Both the position numbers and the translations under genes were made by a program. Source: a virus (taxonomy: Duplodnaviria; Heunggongvirae; Uroviricota; Caudoviricetes). Taken from it: 56,811 bases of DNA. The first letter of the stretch is position 1, and each line of letters starts with the position of its first letter. The DNA is taken from the IMG/VR virus record IMGVR_UViG_2698536317_000003; one strand, 5' to 3'. Shown piece after piece: positions 24,388-56,811 of the stretch. The notes beneath the pieces are model-generated. The model was given only the letters and a program-made list of their open reading frames with translations. It ran no database searches and was not told where the DNA came from.

Positions 24388-25322
24388 TCTTCGCCATATT
24401 TAGCGTGCGCAACCTTATAGTTTTCTTGCGCCCGTTCTAATATTCGTTTGTTTAATATATTACCGTCTTCGTCAACTAATACGGTAATAGTGCTGCATTT
24501 GCAGTTAATTGAATTAGGGGATCTACTCCACCATTCGCGCTGCTCTTCTATGGTGTATGTTTTCCCGTGTCGCTGTGCGTGTGATAGCCTGGTAGTCGGT
24601 GACAATGCCGAAATGTGCATTTGCATAGTGCGCAAGTTAAGCTCATCCGATGCGGCTTCTGCCTCATCCATACGCGCTGTGCGTAACGCTGTGCATATTT
24701 CAGTACGGGCAATACGTTTGCACCTGTATAGCGGTAATTGCGTTTCCTGCTGCAATGTGCGCGCTATTTCTAGTGGGTTTAGGCCACGGGCCATGCCTTC
24801 GGTTAATCGGCGGGCCATATCCTTCTTGATCTGTGCGGTAAGCCCGCGCATCTCTTCAAATACACGGGTACGAACCAGGGCAAGGCGTGTGCGATATGTC
24901 TGACTGGTTAATACCGCAGACACTTCAGGGTAAGCCCTGGAATATGTGACTGACTGGTTAGCGAGGTTGGCATATTCCTGAGAAGTGCCGCGCTGATATG
25001 CCACCTTCACGTATTCCTGCCAGAACCAGAAGTTTTCCGGGTCTGTTAACTCGAATATTTCATCAATCATGTCGCTGGCGTCTTCCAGCAAATCATGTAA
25101 TTCGTCGATGTAGATCTGGAAGGTGTATTTTTTATTAACAGCCAGGGTATATTGTATTCTGTCCAGTATGGCGATATATGGATCGGCTACTTTCTTCAGG
25201 CAGGCTTTAAAACGCTTGATAGCACCAGACCTTAACTTCCCTGTCATGGTCGGGTCTTCGGTGTTAGATGGCATTATCGCGGCTGGAGGTATTCGCCTGA
25301 TTATCTTCTTCACCCTCATCAT
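24378..25322 (-). CDS. Head morphogenesis protein (SPP1 gp7 / Mu F-like)
   Basis: 314-aa ORF downstream of portal. Confidence 0.65.
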   Translation of the reverse strand: MMRVKKIIRRIPPAAIMPSNTEDPTMTGKLRSGAIKRFKACLKKVADPYIAILDRIQYTLAVNKKYTFQIYIDELHDLLEDASDMIDEIFELTDPENFWFWQEYVKVAYQRGTSQEYANLANQSVTYSRAYPEVSAVLTSQTYRTRLALVRTRVFEEMRGLTAQIKKDMARRLTEGMARGLNPLEIARTLQQETQLPLYRCKRIARTEICTALRTARMDEAEAASDELNLRTMQMHISALSPTTRLSHAQRHGKTYTIEEQREWWSRSPNSINCKCSTITVLVDEDGNILNKRILERAQENYKVAHAKYGEDWE

Positions 25323-26655
25323 CGTCCTCCTCTTCCGTTTCTACTTCACTGGCTGGGCCATCGTATCCGGCAGCCTCGCGGATCTCGTCACCGCTAAATA
25401 TTTCTTCACCAGTAGCCAGACAAGCCTGATTGATTTGTGCCATTTTGTCTGCGGCTTCCAGTAGCTCTGCTTTGGTCATGGCGTTAAGGTCGTCCCATAG
25501 CACTGATACATCTACTGGCATACTGATAAGGCGTAGATCTGCCATCTTGCGGAACAGATCTTCAATCTCGCCACCGATTTCCTCCCTGCGGGTCATGCAG
25601 CGGCTGTTGAAGTAACGCAGGTCTTCGGTTGATGCACGCTCTCCCTGTTGGTTCCCAACCAGGATGCGGGTTGGAATATCAACACCAGCGGCGGCGGTTT
25701 GCAGGTTTACATCATAGGTTGATGACGGGTCAGACACGGCAGTAACCAGCGGGCTTACTGTCGCACCCTGTAACGCCATCATTACGTCATTACCCTTATT
25801 CATTTCAGCCGTAGCCTCATTGAATCTTTCGCGTAACTCTGTAACGTCGCAATCGTATGTTGCAGCCAGGGAACGGAAGTCAATCTCTTTATCGAACGAA
25901 ATAGCAAGCTGACGCGCTGCGTTTTTCAGGAATGATTCACCACTACCGCCTTCCACTTTTTCCAGTGATACGAATGCGTTGTAGGAAGGTTCAAGGAAAG
26001 CGATGACATCATCAGAATAGTCGCCAAAGATGAATATGCGGTCAGGGTGGATCTTTCTGGCAATGGTCTTACTGTTAATGCGTTCTTTGTATTCCCACCA
26101 TGTCGGCAGGCCATAATTTTCACTGTCCGGGTCTTCTTCGAACTCCTTCGGTGTAAGAGCGCCAGCCCACACAGGGGTAAATTTGGCAATACCTACGCCT
26201 TTTGTCACTGGCTGATCCCACGGCTGGTTATCTCTGACATGAATCAACAGACCAGCATAACGACCAATGAGGCGGCGGCGATCACATTCAGCAACAGTGC
26301 GCCAAAATCTGTTGTTAAATTTCTTCTTGATTTCTCTTTCCCACGGTGTTTCCTTTTTCGCTTTCTCGTCTTCAGTTCCCTCAATCATCTTTGGCTTGGT
26401 GCGCCAGCAAGTCGTAACAATCTTTTCTACAGCACCGTGAGCGATGCCGCCGCGTCTGTACAGTTTGTATAGATCGTGGTACGTGATCTCTTCTTTGAAT
26501 CCGTATTCACTCCACGCAGCATCACGTTTGGCATCTATCCCCATAGTGAATGGGTTGGCTGCGGCATAGCGGGCGTAGGCCGCCTGGCGTTGTGACAAGG
26601 CAGCATTAACCGCCAATTCTAAATTGGATGGCATAATGTTTACTCCTGAATACAT
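25264..26655 (-). CDS. Portal protein
   Basis: 463-aa ORF after large terminase, acidic C-terminus; likely true start at internal ATG 26634 after AGGAG. Confidence 0.8.
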   Translation of the reverse strand: MYSGVNIMPSNLELAVNAALSQRQAAYARYAAANPFTMGIDAKRDAAWSEYGFKEEITYHDLYKLYRRGGIAHGAVEKIVTTCWRTKPKMIEGTEDEKAKKETPWEREIKKKFNNRFWRTVAECDRRRLIGRYAGLLIHVRDNQPWDQPVTKGVGIAKFTPVWAGALTPKEFEEDPDSENYGLPTWWEYKERINSKTIARKIHPDRIFIFGDYSDDVIAFLEPSYNAFVSLEKVEGGSGESFLKNAARQLAISFDKEIDFRSLAATYDCDVTELRERFNEATAEMNKGNDVMMALQGATVSPLVTAVSDPSSTYDVNLQTAAAGVDIPTRILVGNQQGERASTEDLRYFNSRCMTRREEIGGEIEDLFRKMADLRLISMPVDVSVLWDDLNAMTKAELLEAADKMAQINQACLATGEEIFSGDEIREAAGYDGPASEVETEEEDDDEGEEDNQANTSSRDNAI

Positions 26656-31296: not shown

Positions 31297-31497
31297 TTAC
31301 TTGTTCCCCATTCGCGCGTCGTGTTCCTCTTGCGCTCGCTTGTTCTCCTGTGATTTAAAGTAATAATTAACGGCAAATGTGCCTACGGTTGATAAAATAC
31401 CCACAAAGACGGCAATGTCATTGATGGTTATCGCGCCGAAAAAAGCAGTTACGGCCCCAGTCACATACGCGCACGCCTCCCGTATTCTGTCGAACAT
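31297..31497 (-). CDS. Holin (small two-TM, pinholin-like)
   Basis: 66-aa ORF with two hydrophobic helices and charged C-terminus, immediately upstream of endolysin. Confidence 0.75.
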   Translation of the reverse strand: MFDRIREACAYVTGAVTAFFGAITINDIAVFVGILSTVGTFAVNYYFKSQENKRAQEEHDARMGNK

Positions 31498-31504
31498 AGA
31501 TTTT

Positions 31505-31540
31505 CCTCCAACAAAGCAAAAACCCGGCGCGGGGCCGGGT
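31505..31540 (-). terminator. Intrinsic terminator immediately upstream of holin RBS (tR-prime-like position)
   Basis: ACCCGGC-GCGGG-GCCGGGT hairpin followed on the minus strand by TTTTTGCTTTGTT. Confidence 0.55.
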
Positions 31541-31604
31541 AATTACAATTTCGCATTGTTAGGAAATATTTTAATCTGTTTGTTTGCGCTCTACAAATAC
31601 GGCG

Positions 31605-31832
31605 TTAACGATAAGGTCCAAGCAAACGAACAAGCCATTCTTTGTATTTGACGGCAACGTGTTTTGGTGCAAAATATCCTTGCACTTCCTTACCGCCTCG
31701 CCACTCCCTTCTAAATTCGCACTCGTTTTGATACTCCTTTCCGCTTTTACTATCCAGCCAGCAAGCAGGTGAGTAACCTTTTTCACTTCCGAACCGATGC
31801 CATATTGATGACAGTAAAACCCTTTCTTCCAT
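31605..31832 (-). CDS. Hypothetical protein (75 aa, Trp-rich, basic)
   Basis: ATG-initiated ORF upstream of holin terminator; overlaps alternative-frame ORF 31571-31786. Confidence 0.3.
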   Translation of the reverse strand: MEERVLLSSIWHRFGSEKGYSPACWLDSKSGKEYQNECEFRREWRGGKEVQGYFAPKHVAVKYKEWLVRLLGPYR

Positions 31833-32204
31833 ATTGCCCCCCCAACAAATACGGCTTTACGCTGTTCTGTATATCAGTCCGTTATCAAGCAATGTTTGCA
31901 TGTGTTCGCGATCCATGTCGCTTAATTCCCAATAAGGAACATCTTCATTCCTTATCATCACCTCTTCGCCTCTTACCAAATAGGCGATGTCAAATACCTT
32001 ATGCAAATAGATGCCATCTTCGATCTCGTTCATAGGTCGCTAGCCTTTACCAGTTCACCAGCATCAAGAAATATTTTAATTGTTTCTCGCGTCGTCTTAA
32101 TGATTGGCGCTACCCACTCGCCACCGCCAACGCGGATACGAATATCATCGCCTTCTACGCGGTAAAACAGCCTGTCGACTACTGTTGCTGCGTACACGCC
32201 ATCT

Positions 32205-47193: not shown

Positions 47194-47841
47194 TTATGGC
47201 AGGTTTACGATCTTCGCATCAACTACCACGCCTATGATTTTTGATTCTGGATTCATAGGGATTGGCGGATACAGCGGATTGAGCGAACGTAAAAGCCTTT
47301 GACCTCCATCAATAATCAACTGTTTAAACGTCGGTATCTGCCCTTCCTCAAGCTGGGCTATAACCAGTTTGCCGTCAATAGCTGGCGCGTGCGGGTCCAC
47401 GAGTATCATCGTCCCCGCCGGGATGCTCAACCCCTGCGGCGCGTTCATTGATTCACCTTTGGCAACCAGCCAGTAACTATCATCTGAACAAATAACGCTA
47501 GTCGTAACGTGTGGTAATGCTGATCGCCTTGTGTCATCCATATTGTTTACTGTATCCTTCCAGTCAATAACCGGGTAACTACCTAAATCACGCGGCGGTG
47601 CGGCCTGAAGTGTATTAGAAACAGAATCATCAATGACCATACCATCATGTGTAACAGTGAACTGCCGACGACCAAGCGCCCGCATAATCCGCGCAATATC
47701 TTCAAGATTTGGCTCGCGGCGACCGTTCAGCCAGTGTGACAGGCCGCCTTTAGTTATCCCCATGAGATCTGCGAGTGAATCCTGACTCATGCCCTGCGCC
47801 CGCATGAGCTGCTTTGCTAAGTCATACCATTTTGTTTTCAT
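47194..47841 (-). CDS. CI-like repressor (HTH_XRE N-terminus, LexA/S24 peptidase-like C-terminus)
   Basis: N-terminal HTH (SQDSLADLMGITKGGLSHWLNG) and C-terminal GESM...K autocleavage-type domain. Confidence 0.85.
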   Translation of the reverse strand: MKTKWYDLAKQLMRAQGMSQDSLADLMGITKGGLSHWLNGRREPNLEDIARIMRALGRRQFTVTHDGMVIDDSVSNTLQAAPPRDLGSYPVIDWKDTVNNMDDTRRSALPHVTTSVICSDDSYWLVAKGESMNAPQGLSIPAGTMILVDPHAPAIDGKLVIAQLEEGQIPTFKQLIIDGGQRLLRSLNPLYPPIPMNPESKIIGVVVDAKIVNLP

Positions 47842-48146
47842 GTCGCTACCCTATAACCTCAAAAAGTTTGATGCAAGTCACAAAACGTGTATTTTAAGCC
47901 TTGATCTTAAAATTCCATTTTGTAAACTTGCAGACAAGGTAAGGCCATACTTGCAAAGACGCAAGGAAAAAGATAACGGAAGGCACAAAAAGGCACATAC
48001 CTTAAGCTCTTTAAAAATCCGGTGTCGCTGCGAAGCGAAAAACAAATATCACGCAACGGCGGGATCTGTTGAGCGGTCAGTCACTGCTATCTAATGCTAA
48101 TGGGATGCCCGCCCGCGCGTTCATTTTAACCATAGGAGAAAATACA
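47842..48146. promoter_or_regulatory. Divergent immunity control region (OR-like) with nutR-like element
   Basis: CTTGCA-type palindromes, CCATTTTGTAAAC motif (47915-47927), boxA-like GCTCTTTAAAAAT with GNRA hairpin TCGCT-GCGA-AGCGA (48001-48029). Confidence 0.4.
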
Positions 48147-48401
48147 ATGAGCATGAACATGATTAGCGAAGTATGGAAAGTAAAACTTAACAGCCCGATT
48201 CAAAAACTGGTCTTAATGGCTCTGGCTGAAAAGGCAGATAACCGCCGTCACGTCATGGTATCACGACAAGAAATTGCAAAAATGTGTGAACTTCCTGTTC
48301 ATACGGTACATGATGCCTTCGCCGCGTTAATGCATAAAGGGTTTGTTTGTCGTCTTGATGCGTTCAGTGATGTCTATGTAGTGATGTTACCGGAGGAATG
48401 A
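48147..48401 (+). CDS. First rightward early gene; small HTH regulator (Cro/CII-position)
   Basis: AGGAG RBS; 84 aa; stop 3 nt before replication gene start. Confidence 0.4.
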   Translation: MSMNMISEVWKVKLNSPIQKLVLMALAEKADNRRHVMVSRQEIAKMCELPVHTVHDAFAALMHKGFVCRLDAFSDVYVVMLPEE

Positions 48402-48404
48402 TCT

Positions 48405-49451
48405 ATGAAGTGGTTTAAGCATGATAGCGATGCGAACCGCGATGAAAAACTTCAAAACGTCTTGCTTGATTATGGCCTGGAAGGGTACGGGCTTTATTGG
48501 TATTGCCTCGAACTAATAACTTATGACGTAGATCAGCACAATCTAACTTTTGACCTACGACATGACGCGAGAATCATTGCGCGAAACGTCGGATCGACTG
48601 AAAAACGTATAGAAGAAATGATGAAATACTTCATCGAAATTGGTTTGTTTGAATGTTCTCAAGGCCACATAACTTGTTTAAAGTTATTGAAAAGGCTGGA
48701 CCAATCAATGACTTCTAAAAGCGCATACAGGGCAGCCATAAACACAGCGAAGGAGCAATTAAAATTAGAAAAGTTAATCAATCCAACACAAAAAGGTCAT
48801 GATAGGGTCATGACCGGGTCAGGAAAGGGTCATGAATTAGAATTAGAAGTAGAAGAAGAAAGAGAAGAAGAAAAGAAAAATATAAAAAGAAAAGAAGTCA
48901 ATCAGGACGGTGATTTCCAGGTAAGCGAGGCGGCTTATCGTTGCTTAGCCTTCTACAACGACAAGGCTGGATGCAAATGTCGTGATGCTAAGCCATTCAT
49001 CGAACTACTGACAGAAACAAAAACACGTAAAGCGTATACGGAGGATGAGATCACATTAGTGATTGAGTGGGCTTTAACGCAATGGCGTAGCCGTGGCGGA
49101 ACACCTAAACCTATCAACATTTGCCGGGTAACTAAATTTGACGGGTATCTTGCTGATGCTGAACAATGGCGCAATCTGTCAGTTACTGTAAACGCTGCCG
49201 ATGTGGTAAATGAGTTTAACATCACGTTTGATGGCCTGTTGCCACCTGCTGAACTGGATCGGGATCTTGAACGTAAAATATATGCGTTCACTGACTACCT
49301 GAAAGACAAAAGCATTAACGGATTTATCGCCTACTTTGAAGCATTCAAGAGCAAGGCTTCAGACTTTTACTTCGGCGATGGCTTCACAGCGACACTTGAT
49401 TTCCTGCTTAAACCAAAAACGCTACGCGATACACGCGCAGGCGCTCTTTGA
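48405..49451 (+). CDS. Phage replisome organiser / replication initiation protein (DUF4373-like N-terminus)
   Basis: N-terminal MKWFKHDSDANRDEKL...GLEGYGLYWYCLE signature; acidic linker. Confidence 0.6.
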   Translation: MKWFKHDSDANRDEKLQNVLLDYGLEGYGLYWYCLELITYDVDQHNLTFDLRHDARIIARNVGSTEKRIEEMMKYFIEIGLFECSQGHITCLKLLKRLDQSMTSKSAYRAAINTAKEQLKLEKLINPTQKGHDRVMTGSGKGHELELEVEEEREEEKKNIKRKEVNQDGDFQVSEAAYRCLAFYNDKAGCKCRDAKPFIELLTETKTRKAYTEDEITLVIEWALTQWRSRGGTPKPINICRVTKFDGYLADAEQWRNLSVTVNAADVVNEFNITFDGLLPPAELDRDLERKIYAFTDYLKDKSINGFIAYFEAFKSKASDFYFGDGFTATLDFLLKPKTLRDTRAGAL

Positions 49452-49818
49452 CCAACCACGATCCACAAAAACCCAAAATAACCCGCAAAACAAGCTCGCC
49501 AGCGAGATAAATCGCATGTGGTGCTACACTTGCTTACCTTTTTGCGATTAGCTCGTTATAGAGCGTTACAGAGAGGATTTCAAAAATGGACGGTAAACAC
49601 GTTTTTGCCCTGGTCTTTGCCATCGCTGCGGCAATCGCTGTTAACGTCGCTTTGTTCGGCGGTTTGTTCCTTCTAGTCAATCCATAACCTACCCACCATT
49701 CTGTAAATCAAAAATTAGCCACCTGAGAGCGTCTATAACGCAATAAGACACTGCAACCTGTGCAAACGGGTTACGCGGTGGAATTTTGCGTTGTAGAGCG
49801 TTTTACGGAGAAAATACA

Positions 49819-50559
49819 ATGTCTGATTTAATGGTTTTTGATGTCGATAGCGAAGTATTAATGATTTCATCGCGTGAAATAGCAGAAGCAACAGGCAAGG
49901 ATCATTCTTCTGTGGTTGTGCGTGATATTAAAAACATGCTGATCGATTTAGGGTTTACTGAGCATGATTTTTATCCTGCAAAAATGCAGGATTATGAATT
50001 TATAGGGTTTTTGTTTAAGTACAAGCACTACAACGGTCGCAACGTCATTGATGAGGTTTTGCTAAATAAAGAGCTAACAATGTGCTTGATCACTGGCTAT
50101 GACGTTAAGCAACGCATGAAGGTAATTAAACGCGTTAAAGAGTTGGAGGAGGCGCAACACAAACTAGCTTTGCCGGATTTCACTGATCCGGTTGCGGCAG
50201 CCCGCGCATGGGCGGATGAGGTAGAGCAAAAATTATTAGTTAAGCAAGAAAATGAACGGCTTACACTGGTTAACAAACAGCTTGCGCCAAAAGCTGCTGT
50301 ATGTGACGCGATAGTCAAAAACGATATGCACCGCACGGCTTCAGAGGTAGCTAAACCGCTGGGAATGTCAGCCGTAAAATTAAACAGAAAACTTTCGGCG
50401 GTTGGTGTTTATGATCTTCGCTGTCGCCGCCGTGTATTCAGTCAGTGGTTTATTGATGAGGGCTACGGTGAAATGAGGGTAACTCACGATGGATATGAGC
50501 AGGCTGTATTCACTGCTAAAGGACAAGTATGGATTACTGAGCTTTTAACTTGTAACTAA
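49819..50559 (+). CDS. Antirepressor (Rha-like N-terminus, KilAC-like C-terminus)
   Basis: About 246-aa ORF with recalled Rha/KilAC-type sequence features. Confidence 0.6.
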   Translation: MSDLMVFDVDSEVLMISSREIAEATGKDHSSVVVRDIKNMLIDLGFTEHDFYPAKMQDYEFIGFLFKYKHYNGRNVIDEVLLNKELTMCLITGYDVKQRMKVIKRVKELEEAQHKLALPDFTDPVAAARAWADEVEQKLLVKQENERLTLVNKQLAPKAAVCDAIVKNDMHRTASEVAKPLGMSAVKLNRKLSAVGVYDLRCRRRVFSQWFIDEGYGEMRVTHDGYEQAVFTAKGQVWITELLTCN

Positions 50560-50593: not shown

Positions 50594-51712
50594 ATGTCAC
50601 AAAGAAAAATCAGCGATGAGCAATTGATCGCTGAATATAACAACGGTTTAACGTACAAGCAGATCGCTGAAAAATATGGCATGTCAAAACGCAACGTCGA
50701 GCGGCTAGGCGCAAAACTGGCGAAACGCGGTTTAATATCCACGCGTCGCGCACCGGGTTTTGGCGTCAATGCTGAGTCATTGCTCGTCGATAAGGATGGC
50801 AATGTGATCATGCGCTGGATTAAAACAGCCCGTGACCGCGACGAAATGGAACAGTTAATGGAAGCGGCCCGCGACGCTTTCACGGATGAAATACCACGCG
50901 CGGAGGCTGTGCCAGTGCCTGAAATTGATTTTCAAAAAAGCCTAGCCCTTTATCCGGTGTTTGATCTGCATATCGGGGCGCTTGCTCATAAAGCTGAATG
51001 CGGCGAGAGCTACGACACTGGGATCGCTGAGCGCGTGTTGAATGACTTCTTTGACTACGCTGTTGGCGCTGCTCCGATGTCTGAAAAAGCCGTACTGCTC
51101 CTCGGTGGCGATCTGCTTCATTCTGACGGTATGGTCCCGGTGACGCCAATAAGTGGGCACATTCTTGATCAAGATAGTCGCTACGCAAAACTTGTTTATG
51201 TGGCGATCCGGTCTGTCCGGCGGGCGGTAGGTAAAATGTTGTTAAATCATAAGGATGTTGAAATCCAGGTGTTATCAGGCAATCACGATCAGTCTGGTAT
51301 GATTTGGCTACGTGCGGCGCTGGCGGCTTTTTACGAAGATGAACCGCGCGTGACGGTTGATGTGTCACCTGCTATCGTCCACCACACGCAGTACGGTAAA
51401 ACATTTCTTGCTTACCACCACGGGCACACTATCAAAAAGCCAGAGAATTTATTGGCTGCTTGCATCTCTGACTGGCGGGATGATTTCGGGAAGTCAGTTG
51501 CTGTTTACGCCCACTGCGGGCACTGGCATCATCAACGGCTGATTGAATCATCGTTGGGCGTTGTTGAGTATCACGGCACGTTAGCCGGTAAAGACGCTTA
51601 CTCAACTAATGGCGGCTGGCGGTCACGTCGTATGGCGGCGGTGATTATTTACAGCCAGGATCATGGGGAGATCGGGCGCTTTGTTTATTACCCTGAATAC
51701 TCCATTTTGTAA
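50594..51712 (+). CDS. HTH-domain protein fused to calcineurin-like metallophosphoesterase domain
   Basis: N-terminal HTH (LTYKQIAEKYGMSKRNVERL); phosphoesterase motifs DLHIG, GGDLLHSDG, GNHDQ, GHWHH. Confidence 0.55.
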   Translation: MSQRKISDEQLIAEYNNGLTYKQIAEKYGMSKRNVERLGAKLAKRGLISTRRAPGFGVNAESLLVDKDGNVIMRWIKTARDRDEMEQLMEAARDAFTDEIPRAEAVPVPEIDFQKSLALYPVFDLHIGALAHKAECGESYDTGIAERVLNDFFDYAVGAAPMSEKAVLLLGGDLLHSDGMVPVTPISGHILDQDSRYAKLVYVAIRSVRRAVGKMLLNHKDVEIQVLSGNHDQSGMIWLRAALAAFYEDEPRVTVDVSPAIVHHTQYGKTFLAYHHGHTIKKPENLLAACISDWRDDFGKSVAVYAHCGHWHHQRLIESSLGVVEYHGTLAGKDAYSTNGGWRSRRMAAVIIYSQDHGEIGRFVYYPEYSIL

Positions 51713-51730: not shown

Positions 51731-53146
51731 ATGGTAACTGAGCAAATGAACTCACTACGGCAGGAACGTGAAGCGTCAGTTATCGGCGGGCTGCTGTTAG
51801 GCGGCCTAACTCCTAACGCACAAGATGTTCTCGCCACTCTTGATCCTGAAGTGTTCACGATTCCGCTGTATAAACGTGCGTTTGAAGTTATCCGGGCGCA
51901 AGCCAGAAACAGAAATCTTATCGACGCGTTATTGGTTGGCGATGAGATTGGCAATGAAAACTTTGTACCGCTAATGCAAACGGCGCGATCGTGCCCGTCT
52001 GCTGCCAACCTGAAGGGATACGCACAGCTACTACGTGAAGAGCACCAGCGGCGGCAGATGTTGGAACTCATCGACGATATGCGCTACAAACTGGAAACGG
52101 GGACGCTTGAGGTCGTCAAAGAGACGATGAAAGACTTTGATTCCCGGTATTCAAAATTGAAGGTAACGAAAGACAAGATCATTCCGGTGTTGTTGCGCGA
52201 TGCGGTACAGGAATACACGGAGGTGTTAAGCAAACGCATGGAATGCGGTGTCAATTCTGACAACATCAAAACAGGGATAGAACCACTCGACGAAATGTTA
52301 GGCGGCATTAACGCTACTGATCTGGTGCTTCTCGCCGGGCGCCCTGGGTCTGGTAAATCTGCGTTGGCGCTGGCAATTGCCCGCGCTGCTGCTGAACGCC
52401 CTTACCCTGGCAGCAAGGATCAGCGGGTTGGCGTTTTGTTCTTCACGCTTGAAATGTCACTCGATCAGATGACTGAACGCGCTATAGCTGGCGCTGGTAA
52501 TTTATCAACCGACTGTCTGCGTAATCCGGTAAAACTTGATGATGAGGGGTGGGCGCATGTTGGTCAGGGTATGAGCGCACTTGCTAATCTTGACGTGTGG
52601 ATCGTTGACGCATCGCAGTTAACGGTTGAGGAAATACGCGCCACAACGGAACGGATGAAACAGGAGCATCCCAACCTGGGTATGGTAATGATTGACTACA
52701 TCGGGTTGATGAAGCTGGCTAAGGCTGAACGTCATGATCTCGCCGTAGGGCAATTATCATGGTCGTTGAAGATGATGGCGAAAGAATTGCGCGTACCGGT
52801 GTTGGCGCTGGCGCAATTATCCCGCCGCGTTGAGGAACGACCGAACAAGCGTCCTAACAATTCTGATCTGCGCGATTCCGGTAATCTTGAGCAGGACGCT
52901 GACAGGATAATCATGGTATACCGCGATGGCTACTACGATGAGCAGTCTGTAGCCCGCGAATATATGGAAATCATTGTATCTAAAAACCGTCACGGCAAAT
53001 CTGGCACTGTTTACCAGCGGTTTGATGACAACGGCAATATCTTACCATGCGACCAGGCCCGCGCGGCTGCGGCGTGTATTCAGTCTATGAATCATCGTAC
53101 AAGCAGATTTAACCAACGAAACAACCAGAATAACGCATCCTTTTAA
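51731..53146 (+). CDS. Replicative DNA helicase (DnaB-like)
   Basis: Walker A GRPGSGKS, SDLRDSG and RecA-fold motifs; 471 aa. Confidence 0.9.
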   Translation: MVTEQMNSLRQEREASVIGGLLLGGLTPNAQDVLATLDPEVFTIPLYKRAFEVIRAQARNRNLIDALLVGDEIGNENFVPLMQTARSCPSAANLKGYAQLLREEHQRRQMLELIDDMRYKLETGTLEVVKETMKDFDSRYSKLKVTKDKIIPVLLRDAVQEYTEVLSKRMECGVNSDNIKTGIEPLDEMLGGINATDLVLLAGRPGSGKSALALAIARAAAERPYPGSKDQRVGVLFFTLEMSLDQMTERAIAGAGNLSTDCLRNPVKLDDEGWAHVGQGMSALANLDVWIVDASQLTVEEIRATTERMKQEHPNLGMVMIDYIGLMKLAKAERHDLAVGQLSWSLKMMAKELRVPVLALAQLSRRVEERPNKRPNNSDLRDSGNLEQDADRIIMVYRDGYYDEQSVAREYMEIIVSKNRHGKSGTVYQRFDDNGNILPCDQARAAAACIQSMNHRTSRFNQRNNQNNASF

Positions 53147-53222
53147 TCAATATGAGCAAACGGCTTACCAGAAAGTTTACCGCTTTCTGGTGGCTGTTAT
53201 CGCGTTTAAAGCGAGGCTGAAA

Positions 53223-53750
53223 ATGAAAACTTCATACCAACAACAAATAATTGATTTTTTAAATGACGCTGTTATTTCAGGTGAGGGAACGATAGTTAAA
53301 TCTATTCCTGGGCCGGAAGGTGAAATAATTTGCGCTTTGGATGCTTTAGTTTCTGATGGCGTTATTATCAAAGTAGATCTAAATAGTAAAAGATTATCAT
53401 ATTGCTTGAAGTCAGTAAGAGAAATGGCGATAAGGGATATAATCCCTTTGTTTTCAAATAGTAGCGGGTATTTTTCAGCGGAAGATGTTAAAAATGAATT
53501 GAATATTAATATAAACAAAGGAAAGGTCGGGAGAATATTGCGGATGTTAGGAAGTGAGAACCTATTAACTGTTAATAAGTTTGACGGTAAATATTTTTTC
53601 AGAAACGCGCGTTTTTATGGTTATTCAAATGTTATCGCATTTAATTTTAGTAACTTATTAAACGAATACCGTAAAAATAACGGCCTGCTACCGGATAAAC
53701 CAATATTTGAGATCGAAAAACTTAACGGCGAAACGGGGTTGGAATTATGA
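53223..53750 (+). CDS. AT-rich hypothetical protein (about 175 aa), possible winged-helix; candidate moron
   Basis: Visibly AT-rich relative to flanks; ORF begins MKTSYQQQIIDFLN. Confidence 0.5.
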   Translation: MKTSYQQQIIDFLNDAVISGEGTIVKSIPGPEGEIICALDALVSDGVIIKVDLNSKRLSYCLKSVREMAIRDIIPLFSNSSGYFSAEDVKNELNININKGKVGRILRMLGSENLLTVNKFDGKYFFRNARFYGYSNVIAFNFSNLLNEYRKNNGLLPDKPIFEIEKLNGETGLEL

Positions 53751-53953
53751 GACGGGTAATTTTTTATTCAGTTGAAACGTTTGTCGACGATACGCGCGTT
53801 TATTATCCGTGGGAAGTATACGACGCAAAGGTGTATACACCGCCACTGATGCGGAAATATAAACACGTAAAATTTAACCGGGTTTTCGTGCCAATGCGCG
53901 ATGCATTACGGGCGCTGCGTGGGGAATTAAGAAACACAATGCGGATTGTGTAA
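53747..53953 (+). CDS. Hypothetical protein (68 aa)
   Basis: ORF overlapping stop of previous gene. Confidence 0.35.
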   Translation: MRRVIFYSVETFVDDTRVYYPWEVYDAKVYTPPLMRKYKHVKFNRVFVPMRDALRALRGELRNTMRIV

Positions 53954-53962
53954 GGGGGAATC

Positions 53963-54190
53963 ATGAACAAGGATTTAGAATTGACCGTGGAGGATTTAAG
54001 CACGATCGCGGAATACAAGCGCGGCGGTGATCCTGATAAACCTGTTACGGTTGATATGAAATATTTAAAAGGCGCTTTTATGACTTCTTCAAGATTGATA
54101 AGTCTTAAAGCAATTATAAAGGCGCGCTGGGAAAGTTGGCAGGAATACAAAGCGAAAAATAAGGTGAAAAGAAATAATGCGGCAAATTAG
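53963..54190 (+). CDS. Hypothetical protein (75 aa)
   Basis: GGGGGAATC RBS; upstream of ninB. Confidence 0.4.
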   Translation: MNKDLELTVEDLSTIAEYKRGGDPDKPVTVDMKYLKGAFMTSSRLISLKAIIKARWESWQEYKAKNKVKRNNAAN

Positions 54191-54605
54191 ATTTGAGATA
54201 GTCAACGACGCCGTGAAAGAAAACGCTATCAGGCAGATAAGAGAGATCCAGCCTGATAGCAAAAGCCCGCTGATAATTACCATCCAGGAGAAAACCCGCT
54301 CGCTAAGCCAAAACGCGTTGCTTTGGGCGCTGTTAACCGACATTAGCGATCAGGTTAATTGGTACGGTAAGAAGCTGTCGCCGGAAGACTGGAAAGCGGT
54401 ATTTACTGCCGGGCTTAAGAAATATGGCGTCGTCCCTAACCTGGATAAATCCGGCTTTGTTGTATTGGGGACATCAACCAGCCGGATGAGTAAATCAGAA
54501 TTCAGTGAACTAATCGAGCTGATCTACTCGTTCGGCGCTGAACATGATGTTCAATGGTCTGGCGATACGAAATTAAACGAGGAATTCATAAAACGCTGGG
54601 GGTAA
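54177..54605 (+). CDS. ninB: Recombination protein NinB
   Basis: Strong similarity to recalled lambda NinB (ITIQEKTRSLSQNALLWALLTDIS...VVPNLDKSGFVVLGTSTSRMSKSEF). Confidence 0.85.
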   Translation: MRQIRFEIVNDAVKENAIRQIREIQPDSKSPLIITIQEKTRSLSQNALLWALLTDISDQVNWYGKKLSPEDWKAVFTAGLKKYGVVPNLDKSGFVVLGTSTSRMSKSEFSELIELIYSFGAEHDVQWSGDTKLNEEFIKRWG

Positions 54606-55436: not shown

Positions 55437-55654
55437 TGGATAAGATCGGGACAATACTTATTAACCGTGAGCAAGTGCAAAAAATGTTAGGCGGGCTTAG
55501 CAAGTCCGCCTTTTTTAAGCTCGTTAAAAAATGGAAAGAAGCGGGAACTCCTTTCCCTGAACCTGTAAAGGGGATGCCAGCATTAAAGCGCGGGGGATCT
55601 CTTTACCGTTATCAGGACGTTATTTCATTTTGTAAATCGATGGGCTTCATGTAG
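55436..55654 (+). CDS. Excisionase-like / small DNA-binding protein
   Basis: 72-aa ORF adjacent to and converging on the integrase gene. Confidence 0.45.
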   Translation: MDKIGTILINREQVQKMLGGLSKSAFFKLVKKWKEAGTPFPEPVKGMPALKRGGSLYRYQDVISFCKSMGFM

Positions 55655-56811
55655 TAATCAGCCAGTTTATTCATCGCCTCGATTTGTTCCCTCACGTAAT
55701 CATATTGATCATAGATAGCCATCATCCCCGCCAGTTTATGACCCAAAACCTTTTCGGCTACGTGCGGCGCAACGCCAAGCGCTGAAAGGTTTGTCCTTAC
55801 AGTGCGGCGTAGATCGTGACACGACCACGGCTCGCCGCCCATCCTTAGCATCAAATCCCTTGCGGCTGTTTTCGGCACGCTCCTGTCTACCGCTTCATCC
55901 CTTCCAGAAAGCACGGGAACGAAGATAAAATTAAAGCCGTGCAAATCCATAGCCTCACGCAATAAATCAACGCTAACGGCAGATAAACCGCGTTTAAACT
56001 CATTTCTGTTCTTACTCAATGCACCCGGCACGGTCCACACACAATTATCAAGATCAAAATGCTCGCGTTTTGCGTTTGTTAGCTCGCTTGTTCTGCATCC
56101 GGTGAATATAATCAGCTTCATCAATATCTGATTTAGCCGCGCCATTTTTGAGCTATCTATAATGCTGATCAGATGGTGAATCTCTTGTATTGATAAAACG
56201 CGCTTCCTTTGCGCCGGGTTTTTGCCAACGTCTTTCACGCGTAGCAATGATATGTCGTCACGCTCCACGCGGCGGCGGCGCATGGCATATTTTATAACCG
56301 CCTTCATCCTGTTTAAGACTATCCCGGCCTGAACGGGCGCGCCACCATTAGCTACCTTTCTAAAAATTCCCTCCCACATTATGGCGTCCATATCATCAAC
56401 AATATAGCTACCGCATGGTTTGACAATATGCTTGCTTAACATCGCTTCGACTTGCTTATGGTTGACCATGTTTCTTGCCTGCGGTGATTCCATATATTCC
56501 CTGACAATATCTTCAACGGTCGCCCGTGTCGTAACGCGGGAAAGGTGCATTCTTTTTACGATCGATGGATCTCGCCCTGAGTTTAATATTTCCTTATGTT
56601 CCGCCACCGCCGCGCGGGCTTCTTTGAGCGTTATTTCTCCGTAAGTGCCAATCTTCATCCGTCGCGGCTTGCCGTTGAATCGGTAGCGATACTGGAAAGA
56701 TATAACGCCGTGCGGGCTTATCCTGGCAGACAATCCGCCCGCGTCCGGGACTTCTTCCGGGCCGTCATATGGCTTGCCGTGGATGTTTCGTAATTTGGTA
56801 TCTGTAAGCAT
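55612..56811 (-). CDS. Tyrosine integrase, P4-type
   Basis: 399-aa ORF with arm-binding N-terminus (MLTDTKLRN...ISFQYRYRFNGK) and C-terminal catalytic domain; 5-prime end at window edge. Confidence 0.9.
   Translation of the reverse strand: MLTDTKLRNIHGKPYDGPEEVPDAGGLSARISPHGVISFQYRYRFNGKPRRMKIGTYGEITLKEARAAVAEHKEILNSGRDPSIVKRMHLSRVTTRATVEDIVREYMESPQARNMVNHKQVEAMLSKHIVKPCGSYIVDDMDAIMWEGIFRKVANGGAPVQAGIVLNRMKAVIKYAMRRRRVERDDISLLRVKDVGKNPAQRKRVLSIQEIHHLISIIDSSKMARLNQILMKLIIFTGCRTSELTNAKREHFDLDNCVWTVPGALSKNRNEFKRGLSAVSVDLLREAMDLHGFNFIFVPVLSGRDEAVDRSVPKTAARDLMLRMGGEPWSCHDLRRTVRTNLSALGVAPHVAEKVLGHKLAGMMAIYDQYDYVREQIEAMNKLADYYMKPIDLQNEITS

Follow-up and report, generated by a model that had tools for sequence, protein, structure and literature searches.

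An AT-rich minority allele at the ren position of an mEp021-like coliphage and its probable place in a winged-helix superfamily

A gene that differs sharply in composition from the core genes on either side of it raises the question of whether it was brought in from elsewhere or belongs where it is found. The question is posed here by an open reading frame (ORF) at 53223-53750 on the + strand of a 56,811-nucleotide stretch of viral DNA (IMG/VR record IMGVR_UViG_2698536317_000003), the whole of which is referred to below as the window. The phage in the window is an mEp021-like (mEpimmI) temperate coliphage or prophage, and the ORF is a complete coding sequence of 175 codons plus a stop. A preliminary description, made from the DNA letters, had correctly placed it between the helicase gene (PF03796, upstream) and the nin genes (PF05772, downstream) and had read it as foreign cargo with a candidate anti-defence or exclusion function. 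The mEpimmI group of temperate coliphages has been described (PMC11893012), and neither that paper nor its supplements mention the gene. The window copy represents the less common lineage A (subtype A1) of a gene conserved in this position, which is called the slot gene from here on, and as an allele it is AT-rich and very divergent. That it is an allele of a conserved slot, that its product has a tandem winged-helix fold and that it belongs to the Ren/PHROG 1687 superfamily are, taken jointly, very probably correct.

Allelism of the slot behind the helicase gene

The GC content of the slot gene is 0.331 overall and 0.295 at third codon positions (GC3), against 0.506 and 0.54 for the helicase gene (51731-53146). 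Compared with the 34 other genes of the window this corresponds to z = -5.5 for GC and -3.5 for GC3, and a sliding-window check placed the global GC minimum of the 56.8 kb at the ORF, only 0.04% of the 436- or 528-nucleotide windows being equally low. The greater AT-richness relative to the flanking replication genes that had been noticed by eye is therefore real. The protein had also been called rich in Asn, Lys and Ile, which holds for Asn (9.7% vs 5.2%) and Ile (10.3% vs 6.1%), which are enriched about 1.8-fold, whereas Lys is only marginally raised (7.4% vs 6.0%). The suggested check of GC and codon usage likewise gave a divided result: GC and GC3 are strongly atypical, but the codon-adaptation index, with the phage's own genes as reference, is 0.756 against a mean of 0.784 (z = -0.9), which is not unusual.

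Since most loci were first retrieved by means of the slot gene's own tail, an unbiased count was made through the 3' end of the helicase gene, which was found in 35 of 5,426 complete E. coli genomes. The slot was occupied by a homologous gene in all 35, with allele B in 25, allele A2 in three and allele A1, the window type, in seven. The classes were called by match to allele B, which B itself gives over its full length, A2 only from nucleotide 448 and A1 only from nucleotide 469. Allele A is thus in the minority, both among the E. coli prophages (10/35) and among IMG/VR contigs (9/42), and near-identical A1 proteins occur in E. coli prophages. A gene of 175-185 codons is present in the same slot in all relatives, including MagusPhagus, mEp021, mEp013 and the 42 IMG/VR contigs. 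All seven related GenBank phages carry a homologous slot gene, mEp021 as gp08 (AXN54127.1), which is allele B, with equivalents in mEp010, mEp013, mEp044, mEp515, mEp554 and MagusPhagus. A distant relative with a helicase only 55% identical and a different initiator (L004) has one too. Homologues in the slot in all relatives were the observation by which the preliminary description had proposed to judge its own reading, and this is what was found; the view of a foreign gene inserted between core genes does not survive the presence of a homologue in 35/35 flank-bearing genomes.

The difference between allele classes is confined to an AT-rich cassette of about 435 nucleotides (53223-53657, + strand; codons 1-145; GC 0.32), from which the two winged-helix domains and the start of the C-terminal helix are translated. 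DNA alignment places sharp breakpoints at ~53220 and ~53658, between which there is no detectable nucleotide identity to B-type loci, while the flanks are ~0.9 identical; on the right, the A2 breakpoint is about 21 nucleotides to the left of the A1 one. All alleles have the last ~30 codons (LNEYRKNNGLLPDKP.FEIEKLNGETGLEL) in common, which are backbone DNA. The helicase is 98.5% identical among the window, an A2 locus and mEp021, and the genes flanking the slot in B phages are 86-99% identical to those of the window, whereas the slot protein is 69% identical to A2 and only 34-37% identical to B. The B proteins of the mEp021 gp08 type nevertheless share with A1 the slot, the length class, the fold as judged by alignment and a near-identical stretch of last ~30 residues. 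A2 and B alleles are found in near-identical backgrounds (L010 and L013 vs L024 and L026).

Synonymous divergence (dS) between A1 and A2 is 1.73 in the cassette and 0.54 in the helicase, from which it follows that the alleles predate the backbone and are transferred by recombination. GC content is 0.32-0.36 in lineage A, 0.43-0.46 in allele B and 0.39 in the L004 type, against 0.48-0.52 in the helicase; since the B and L004-type alleles also lie below the helicase, the slot is generally GC-poor, with lineage A as the extreme. Homologous recombination in the conserved flanks would have exchanged an ancient cassette of ~435 nucleotides, which would account for the sharp GC trough. The ratio of non-synonymous to synonymous divergence (dN/dS) within the cassette is 0.107 for B-B, 0.147 for A1-A2, 0.067 for A2-A2 and 0.02 for A1-A1 comparisons, with ~0.045 in the helicase. 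The slot gene is under purifying selection, somewhat relaxed, and dN/dS gave no signal of gene-wide positive selection in it.

Fold and family of the slot protein

AlphaFold2 with an alignment of 28 sequences gave a model with a mean pLDDT (predicted local distance difference test) of 81, compared with 77 for an earlier model from nine sequences. A first winged-helix domain (WH1; residues 5-62; 53235-53408, + strand; pLDDT 80-95) is predicted to be followed by a linker helix (residues 63-78; 53409-53456, +), which corresponds to a basic helix conserved throughout the superfamily, and by a second winged-helix domain (WH2; residues 86-126; 53478-53600, +). WH1 of A1 is acidic (net charge -3, isoelectric point (pI) 4.5) and WH2 basic (net +4, pI 9.9), whereas both are basic in allele B. 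WH2 also has a weak match to the winged-helix family PF08100 (E 1e-4), under the curated cut-off. The segment that the preliminary description had guessed to be a winged helix, RILRMLGSENLLTVNKFDGKYFF, was well chosen: it comprises residues 104-126, and in the AlphaFold2 models it takes in recognition helix (99-111) and wing (strands 115-117 and 124-126) of this second domain.

After an invariant Gly133 comes a C-terminal helix (residues 137-152; 53631-53678, +; pLDDT ~80 with the deeper alignment), which was also aligned by hhalign and carries the superfamily-wide motif [FY]G..N.[LI]..F....L.E.R. Among the 28 superfamily sequences there is no variation at L13, G133 and L146 and hardly any at Y60, L106 and R150, and the conservation of G133, L146 and R150 across the superfamily marks the helix as a core element. 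The chain ends in an acidic extension (residues 153-175; 53679-53747, +), NGLLPDKPIFEIEKLNGETGLEL, which is encoded by backbone DNA and predicted to be disordered (pLDDT 40-50). It is near-identical in A1, A2 and B and its motif is kept in the distant relatives P0027 and P0030; being missing from the lambdoid PHROG 1687 members and from Ren, it is specific to this clade.

Structure searches returned winged-helix repressors, including MarR, ArsR and PadR, as neighbours, and for the whole chain tandem winged-helix scaffolds such as SelB WH2-4, RPC62, ESCRT-II, Stn1/p45 and JetB. SelB WH2-4, RPC62, ESCRT-II and the C-termini of Stn1/p45 are 8-18% identical to the slot protein and share no context with it. 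These scaffolds are structural analogues with RNA, DNA or protein ligands and do not narrow the function. A sequence search of solved structures with the slot protein gave nothing below E 0.1, and an NCBIfam search with it gave nothing useful.

It is profile comparison that points to a family. Full-length matches to PHROG 1687 range from P0027 (E 1e-17) and P0030 (7e-16) through allele B (3e-10) and A2 (2e-4) to A1 (0.021). When the mEpimmI family was compared by hhalign with a profile of 17 diverse PHROG 1687-type proteins of ~150 residues, the probability was 98.9% (E 1.2e-17) over 147 columns covering both domains and the C-terminal helix. PHROG 1687 is in turn related to Ren: lambda Ren matches it at E 1.5e-10, a core PHROG 1687 member matches the Ren family PHROG 142 at E 9.6e-11 in two stretches, one per domain, and hhalign of the PHROG 1687-type profile against Ren gave 88.5% (E 2.7e-6) over Ren residues 1-62, the stretch to which WH1 is aligned through that profile. 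The slot protein itself has no match to the PHROG 142 profile at E <= 0.1, and allele B and P0027 reach only E 4e-4 against it, no single stretch passing. At family level the mEpimmI proteins have what distinguishes the tandem branch of PHROG 1687/Ren, namely the profile similarity, the architecture of WH1, linker, WH2 and helix, and the position between helicase or loader and ninB; they lack the direct profile match and the single winged helix of ~96 residues of the Ren family proper. On sequence grounds the slot gene thus appears to be a divergent member of the Ren/PHROG 1687 winged-helix superfamily, in its tandem-domain branch and with a clade-specific tail.

Among the closest known proteins is lambda Ren (NP_040633.1; PHROG 142, 'Ren-like exclusion protein'), which is encoded in the same slot as the last replication-module gene before ninB, in an early rightward-type operon. 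Like the slot protein it has a homologous winged helix followed by a short helix with a similar N.L..F pattern. However, Ren has 96 residues and one winged helix, against 175 residues, two winged helices and an acidic tail in the slot protein, and the GC content of lambda ren is 0.515, like its neighbours, against 0.33. In lambdoid prophages from Enterobacter, Citrobacter and Escherichia the PHROG 1687 proteins, for instance XGU09660.1 (Enterobacter phage vB_Ecl_MII_001), carry the label 'MarR family transcription regulator'. They share with the slot protein the order WH1, linker helix, WH2 and C-terminal helix and a location after a helicase or primase-helicase and before the nin genes, but have ~150 residues without the NGLLPDKP.FEIEKLN extension, are only 13-19% identical to it and have an ordinary GC content of 0.51.

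A gene of this family stands last in five different types of replication module, always just 5' of ninB. The types are lambda O, P and ren; Rep_O with a 626-residue Toprim/AAA primase-helicase, where the start of the Ren-like gene abuts the helicase stop; an O-like gene with DnaB and a 92-residue ORF; a Lin1244-type initiator with DnaB, as in the mEpimmI phages; and an HTH_36 initiator with DnaB, as in L004.

Many of the lambdoid PHROG 1687 members (P0031-P0033, P0036 and P0038-P0047; PHROG 19053) are called at ~223 residues, with an N-terminal extension of ~73. In the Enterobacter phage a separate 92-residue ORF (PHROG 5692) lies directly 5' of the PHROG 1687 gene, and the longer calls may be gene fusions or alternative starts linking both products.

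Possible role and competing explanations

Lambda ren was named decades ago, and ren mutants are said to be excluded by Rex, a result attributed to Toothman and Herskowitz in 1980. The gene is transcribed from pR with O and P and has been described as 'likely involved in DNA replication', and two-hybrid contacts of the Rex proteins with Ren were reported in the same study (bioRxiv 10.1101/2021.04.19.439022); it is non-essential (PMC10695390). That the slot gene is the counterpart of lambda ren, the last early replication-module gene of an mEp021-like phage, is on balance the probable overall explanation. An exclusion function had been put forward in the preliminary description, and homology to lambda Ren together with the ren position would make an anti-exclusion role a reasonable candidate. 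An anti-exclusion or replication-accessory function is, however, proposed only tentatively.

The order of the genes suggests that the slot gene shares an early-operon transcript with the replication genes, a scan for promoters and terminators having given nothing above shuffled expectation. Judging by the fold, the basic WH2, and in other alleles WH1 too, may bind a nucleic acid or protein target, while the conservation of the C-terminal helix and tail suggests that these could dock to a partner that is constant across alleles, for which the adjacent helicase and the product of an overlapping 68-residue ORF are the obvious candidates. Like lambda Ren, the protein might then be a non-essential accessory that keeps phage replication going under Rex-like exclusion, as its homology and position suggest.

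Several observations weigh against this account. Taken alone, A1 is only marginally similar to the superfamily (E 0.02), so that its membership is argued through the intermediates A2, B and P0027, from shared synteny and from the shared tail; the A alleles alone align with the PHROG 1687-type profile in the same register at an hhalign probability of 17% (E 1.4e-3), and the mEpimmI family against the single Ren sequence gives only a weak 7%. The acidic WH1 of A1 is atypical for a DNA-binding domain. There are no rexA- or rexB-sized genes beside the phage's repressor, and no co-varying cognate site or partner was found within +-6 kb in 46 loci. Finally, to say that the protein works like Ren carries little mechanistic content, no mechanism for Ren having been found in the searchable literature.

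The co-variation search bears on what the variable head does. Initiator type, integrase type, the antirepressor slot and the small ORFs each vary without regard to the allele in the 46 loci. A whole-prophage comparison of four A with three B genomes flagged 31501-31950, but the link failed in 33 genomes: the segment is present in FAH, MLI107 and M1/5, which carry B, and largely absent from 127, N921 and OZ501612, which carry A1. As nothing in the phage tracks the allele, the head either performs one task common to all alleles or has its target outside the phage, in the host or a competing element.

A winged-helix protein with a basic recognition helix and wing in its second domain could also be a sequence-specific transcription regulator of nin-region, late or lysogeny genes, its alleles reading different operators. 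MarR, ArsR and PadR repressors are indeed among its top structural neighbours, a lambdoid family member just passes MarR_2 (29.3 vs 27 bits) and HTH_IclR (28.8 vs 22) with its first domain, and database labels of 'MarR family' (PHROG 1687 and Pharokka) and 'Lrp/AsnC family' (some B alleles, from PGAP) say as much. These labels fail their own defining tests of Pfam cut-off and architecture. The slot protein passes no Pfam cut-off and has no match to the MarR families PF01047 and PF12802 at E <= 0.1, P0027 reaches 19.9 bits against a cut-off of 27, and neither HTH_AsnC nor RAM (AsnC_trans_reg) was found in the A, A2, B and P0027 proteins. MarR repressors are alike in the general winged helix-turn-helix type, but have one winged helix per chain and dimerisation helices and sit as homodimers on palindromic operators, whereas the slot protein has its two in tandem in one chain, with neither these helices nor the RAM domain of Lrp/AsnC. 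In a repeat search of 52900-54300 no palindrome or iteron in or near the gene was convincing, the search giving only short two-copy matches at chance level. A cognate operator should co-vary with allele class, yet no DNA does so within +-6 kb or prophage-wide, and A2 and B occur in near-identical backgrounds. A regulator of this kind is unlikely.

The same repeat search counts against a protein following the logic of lambda O, in which the variable head would bind an origin inside its own AT-rich coding sequence and the constant tail recruit the helicase. The likeness is one of architecture, lambda O also having a variable head and a constant tail and the lambda origin iterons lying inside O; moreover the gene lies next to that of the helicase throughout the family, and the cassette is AT-rich and self-contained as to co-variation. 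No iterons or repeat families were seen in 52900-54300 beyond the chance matches, the best of which is a 15-nucleotide repeat (14/15 identical) at 53195-53209 (TGTTATCGCGTTTAA) and 53630-53644 (TGTTATCGCATTTAA). Its copies are 435 nucleotides apart, about the length of the cassette, but it was rejected as a functional site: the second copy encodes the conserved NVIAFNF motif and is not kept in A2, and the repeat is probably due to chance. AT-richness is not kept in allele B, a separate initiator-type gene pair lies at 48069-49451, and the lambda homologue Ren is dispensable (PMC10695390), all of which makes an O-like role highly improbable.

Recent acquisition from a low-GC donor of a moron or anti-defence gene, with a target unrelated to replication, would fit the lowest-GC stretch of the window, the minority status of the allele and a hypervariable centre in conserved flanks, as anti-defence loci often look. 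The family is also extremely narrow, a profile search of 1.84 billion proteins returning seven cluster representatives. Yet fold, length, conserved helix and tail all show the protein to be a homologue of the slot product of every relative, lineage A has diversified within the phage group (69% identity and a dS of 1.7 between A1 and A2), the codon-adaptation index against the phage's own genes is unremarkable, and low GC is partly a property of the slot, B and distant alleles also lying below the helicase. No donor came to light, there being no relatives beyond E. coli-type phages in protein sets of 5.8 billion and 1.84 billion and in a set of one genome per species. The PADLOC-DB defence models gave no match at E <= 1 to the A1, A2 and B proteins and three neighbouring ORFs, a result that excludes little as they cover defence and not anti-defence. 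Recent cargo is very unlikely.

An extension of the ren reading is that Ren-superfamily genes are interchangeable specificity cassettes within the replication module, the constant helix and tail sitting on the replisome and the hypervariable heads each neutralising or evading a different exclusion or abortive-infection system, of host or prophage origin, by which phage replication is attacked. The heads of the A1, A2, B and P0027 types are less than 40% identical between classes. In this general form the proposal is quite unlikely to be right.

Surrounding features and the value of the allele series

The slot gene starts with ATG at 53223 and stops with TGA at 53748-53750, and is preceded by a Shine-Dalgarno-like GAGG (53213-53216, + strand) 6 nucleotides 5' of the ATG, kept in 12/12 aligned loci. 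An in-frame GTG at 53190 was rejected as the start, since the relatives do not start there. At its 3' end the stop overlaps the start of the 68-residue ORF in an ATGA (53747-53750, +), which suggests possible translational coupling of the two. Between the helicase stop (53146) and the ORF start lies a stable hairpin (53159-53198), GGCUUACCAGAAAG...CUUUCUGGUGGCUG; the 96-nucleotide region has a folding energy of -29.9 kcal/mol (z = -4.0 relative to shuffled sequences). In 12 loci, which include both allele classes, the stem hardly varies; where the window has an A most others have a G, with which a G-U pair would form. The hairpin lacks a clean U-run, is none of the published nut sites and matches nothing in Rfam. 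Attenuation, RNA processing or partial termination in front of the slot gene are possible roles for it. A nut site at the locus was rejected, as the published mEpimmI nut sites lie elsewhere, and no known RNA families were found in 52900-54300.

In the early region of the window a CI-like repressor gene (47194-47841, opposite strand) is followed on the + strand by the initiator-type gene pair (48069-49451; PHROG replication-initiation matches, Lin1244_N), a Rha/KilAC antirepressor-like gene (49819-50559), a gene for a 372-residue PHROG 704 protein (50594-51712) and the DnaB-family helicase gene directly upstream of the slot gene (PF03796, E 8e-76). The antirepressor-like gene occupies a further variable slot in the replication module (49786-50559, +), which in relatives contains a zinc-ribbon protein, an HNH endonuclease or a BRO-family protein instead and whose content is independent of the allele at 53223. 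The 372-residue core protein has an N-terminal helix-turn-helix and metallophosphoesterase-type motifs (DxH, GD, GNHD, GHxH) and matches PHROG 704, 'DNA repair exonuclease', at E 2e-140, with no Pfam families above cut-off; its gene is not present in L004. Downstream of the slot gene, and before ninB (54177-54605, +; PF05772, E 1e-46), are the 68-residue ORF (53747-53953, +), which is also found in L004 at 45% identity, and a 75-residue ORF (53963-54190, +), which is mosaic among relatives (63-100% identity) and assorts independently. A convergent integrase gene (55612-56811) closes the window.

Outside the early region, the segment 31501-31950 (~450 nucleotides, upstream of the holin gene at 31297-31497 on the - strand) is a presence/absence polymorphism with short ORFs only, ~100% identical in some prophages and missing in others. 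A head-module gene of ~460 codons (25264-26655, - strand; equivalents at 22265-23635 in L059 and 28488-29858 in L060) has large terminase and minor head protein genes as neighbours, the usual portal position, and in every related prophage its PGAP name is 'anti-CBASS protein Acb1 family protein'; it is either a misannotated portal or a portal with an Acb1-like domain. The prophages L059, L060 and L061 have tail-module gaps with small accessory genes (a ParE-like toxin, a TagO-like protein and a KilAC fragment). They also carry a second nin-type set (NinG, RusA and a Q-like antiterminator) in the opposite, - strand early operon, so that the nin functions of this phage group are split over two operons.

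The immediate consequence of the analysis is one of annotation, in that the reading as foreign cargo and the labels 'MarR family' and 'Lrp/AsnC family' are corrected. Were the slot gene an ordinary dispensable accessory, the finding would be a routine one. Were the superfamily a set of interchangeable specificity cassettes, the phenotype of lambda ren would exemplify a general hotspot of anti-exclusion, and the A allele would give its phages a host and defence range unlike that of the common B allele. On the family assignment proposed here, Ren is the single-domain member of a wider winged-helix superfamily that always closes replication modules of the lambda P, DnaB or primase-helicase type. 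In the mEpimmI coliphages, recently described from the human gut, deeply divergent alleles recombine freely into near-identical backbones, and A1, A2 and B therefore form a natural allele series in otherwise isogenic phages that could be used to probe Ren-type function and exclusion sensitivity.

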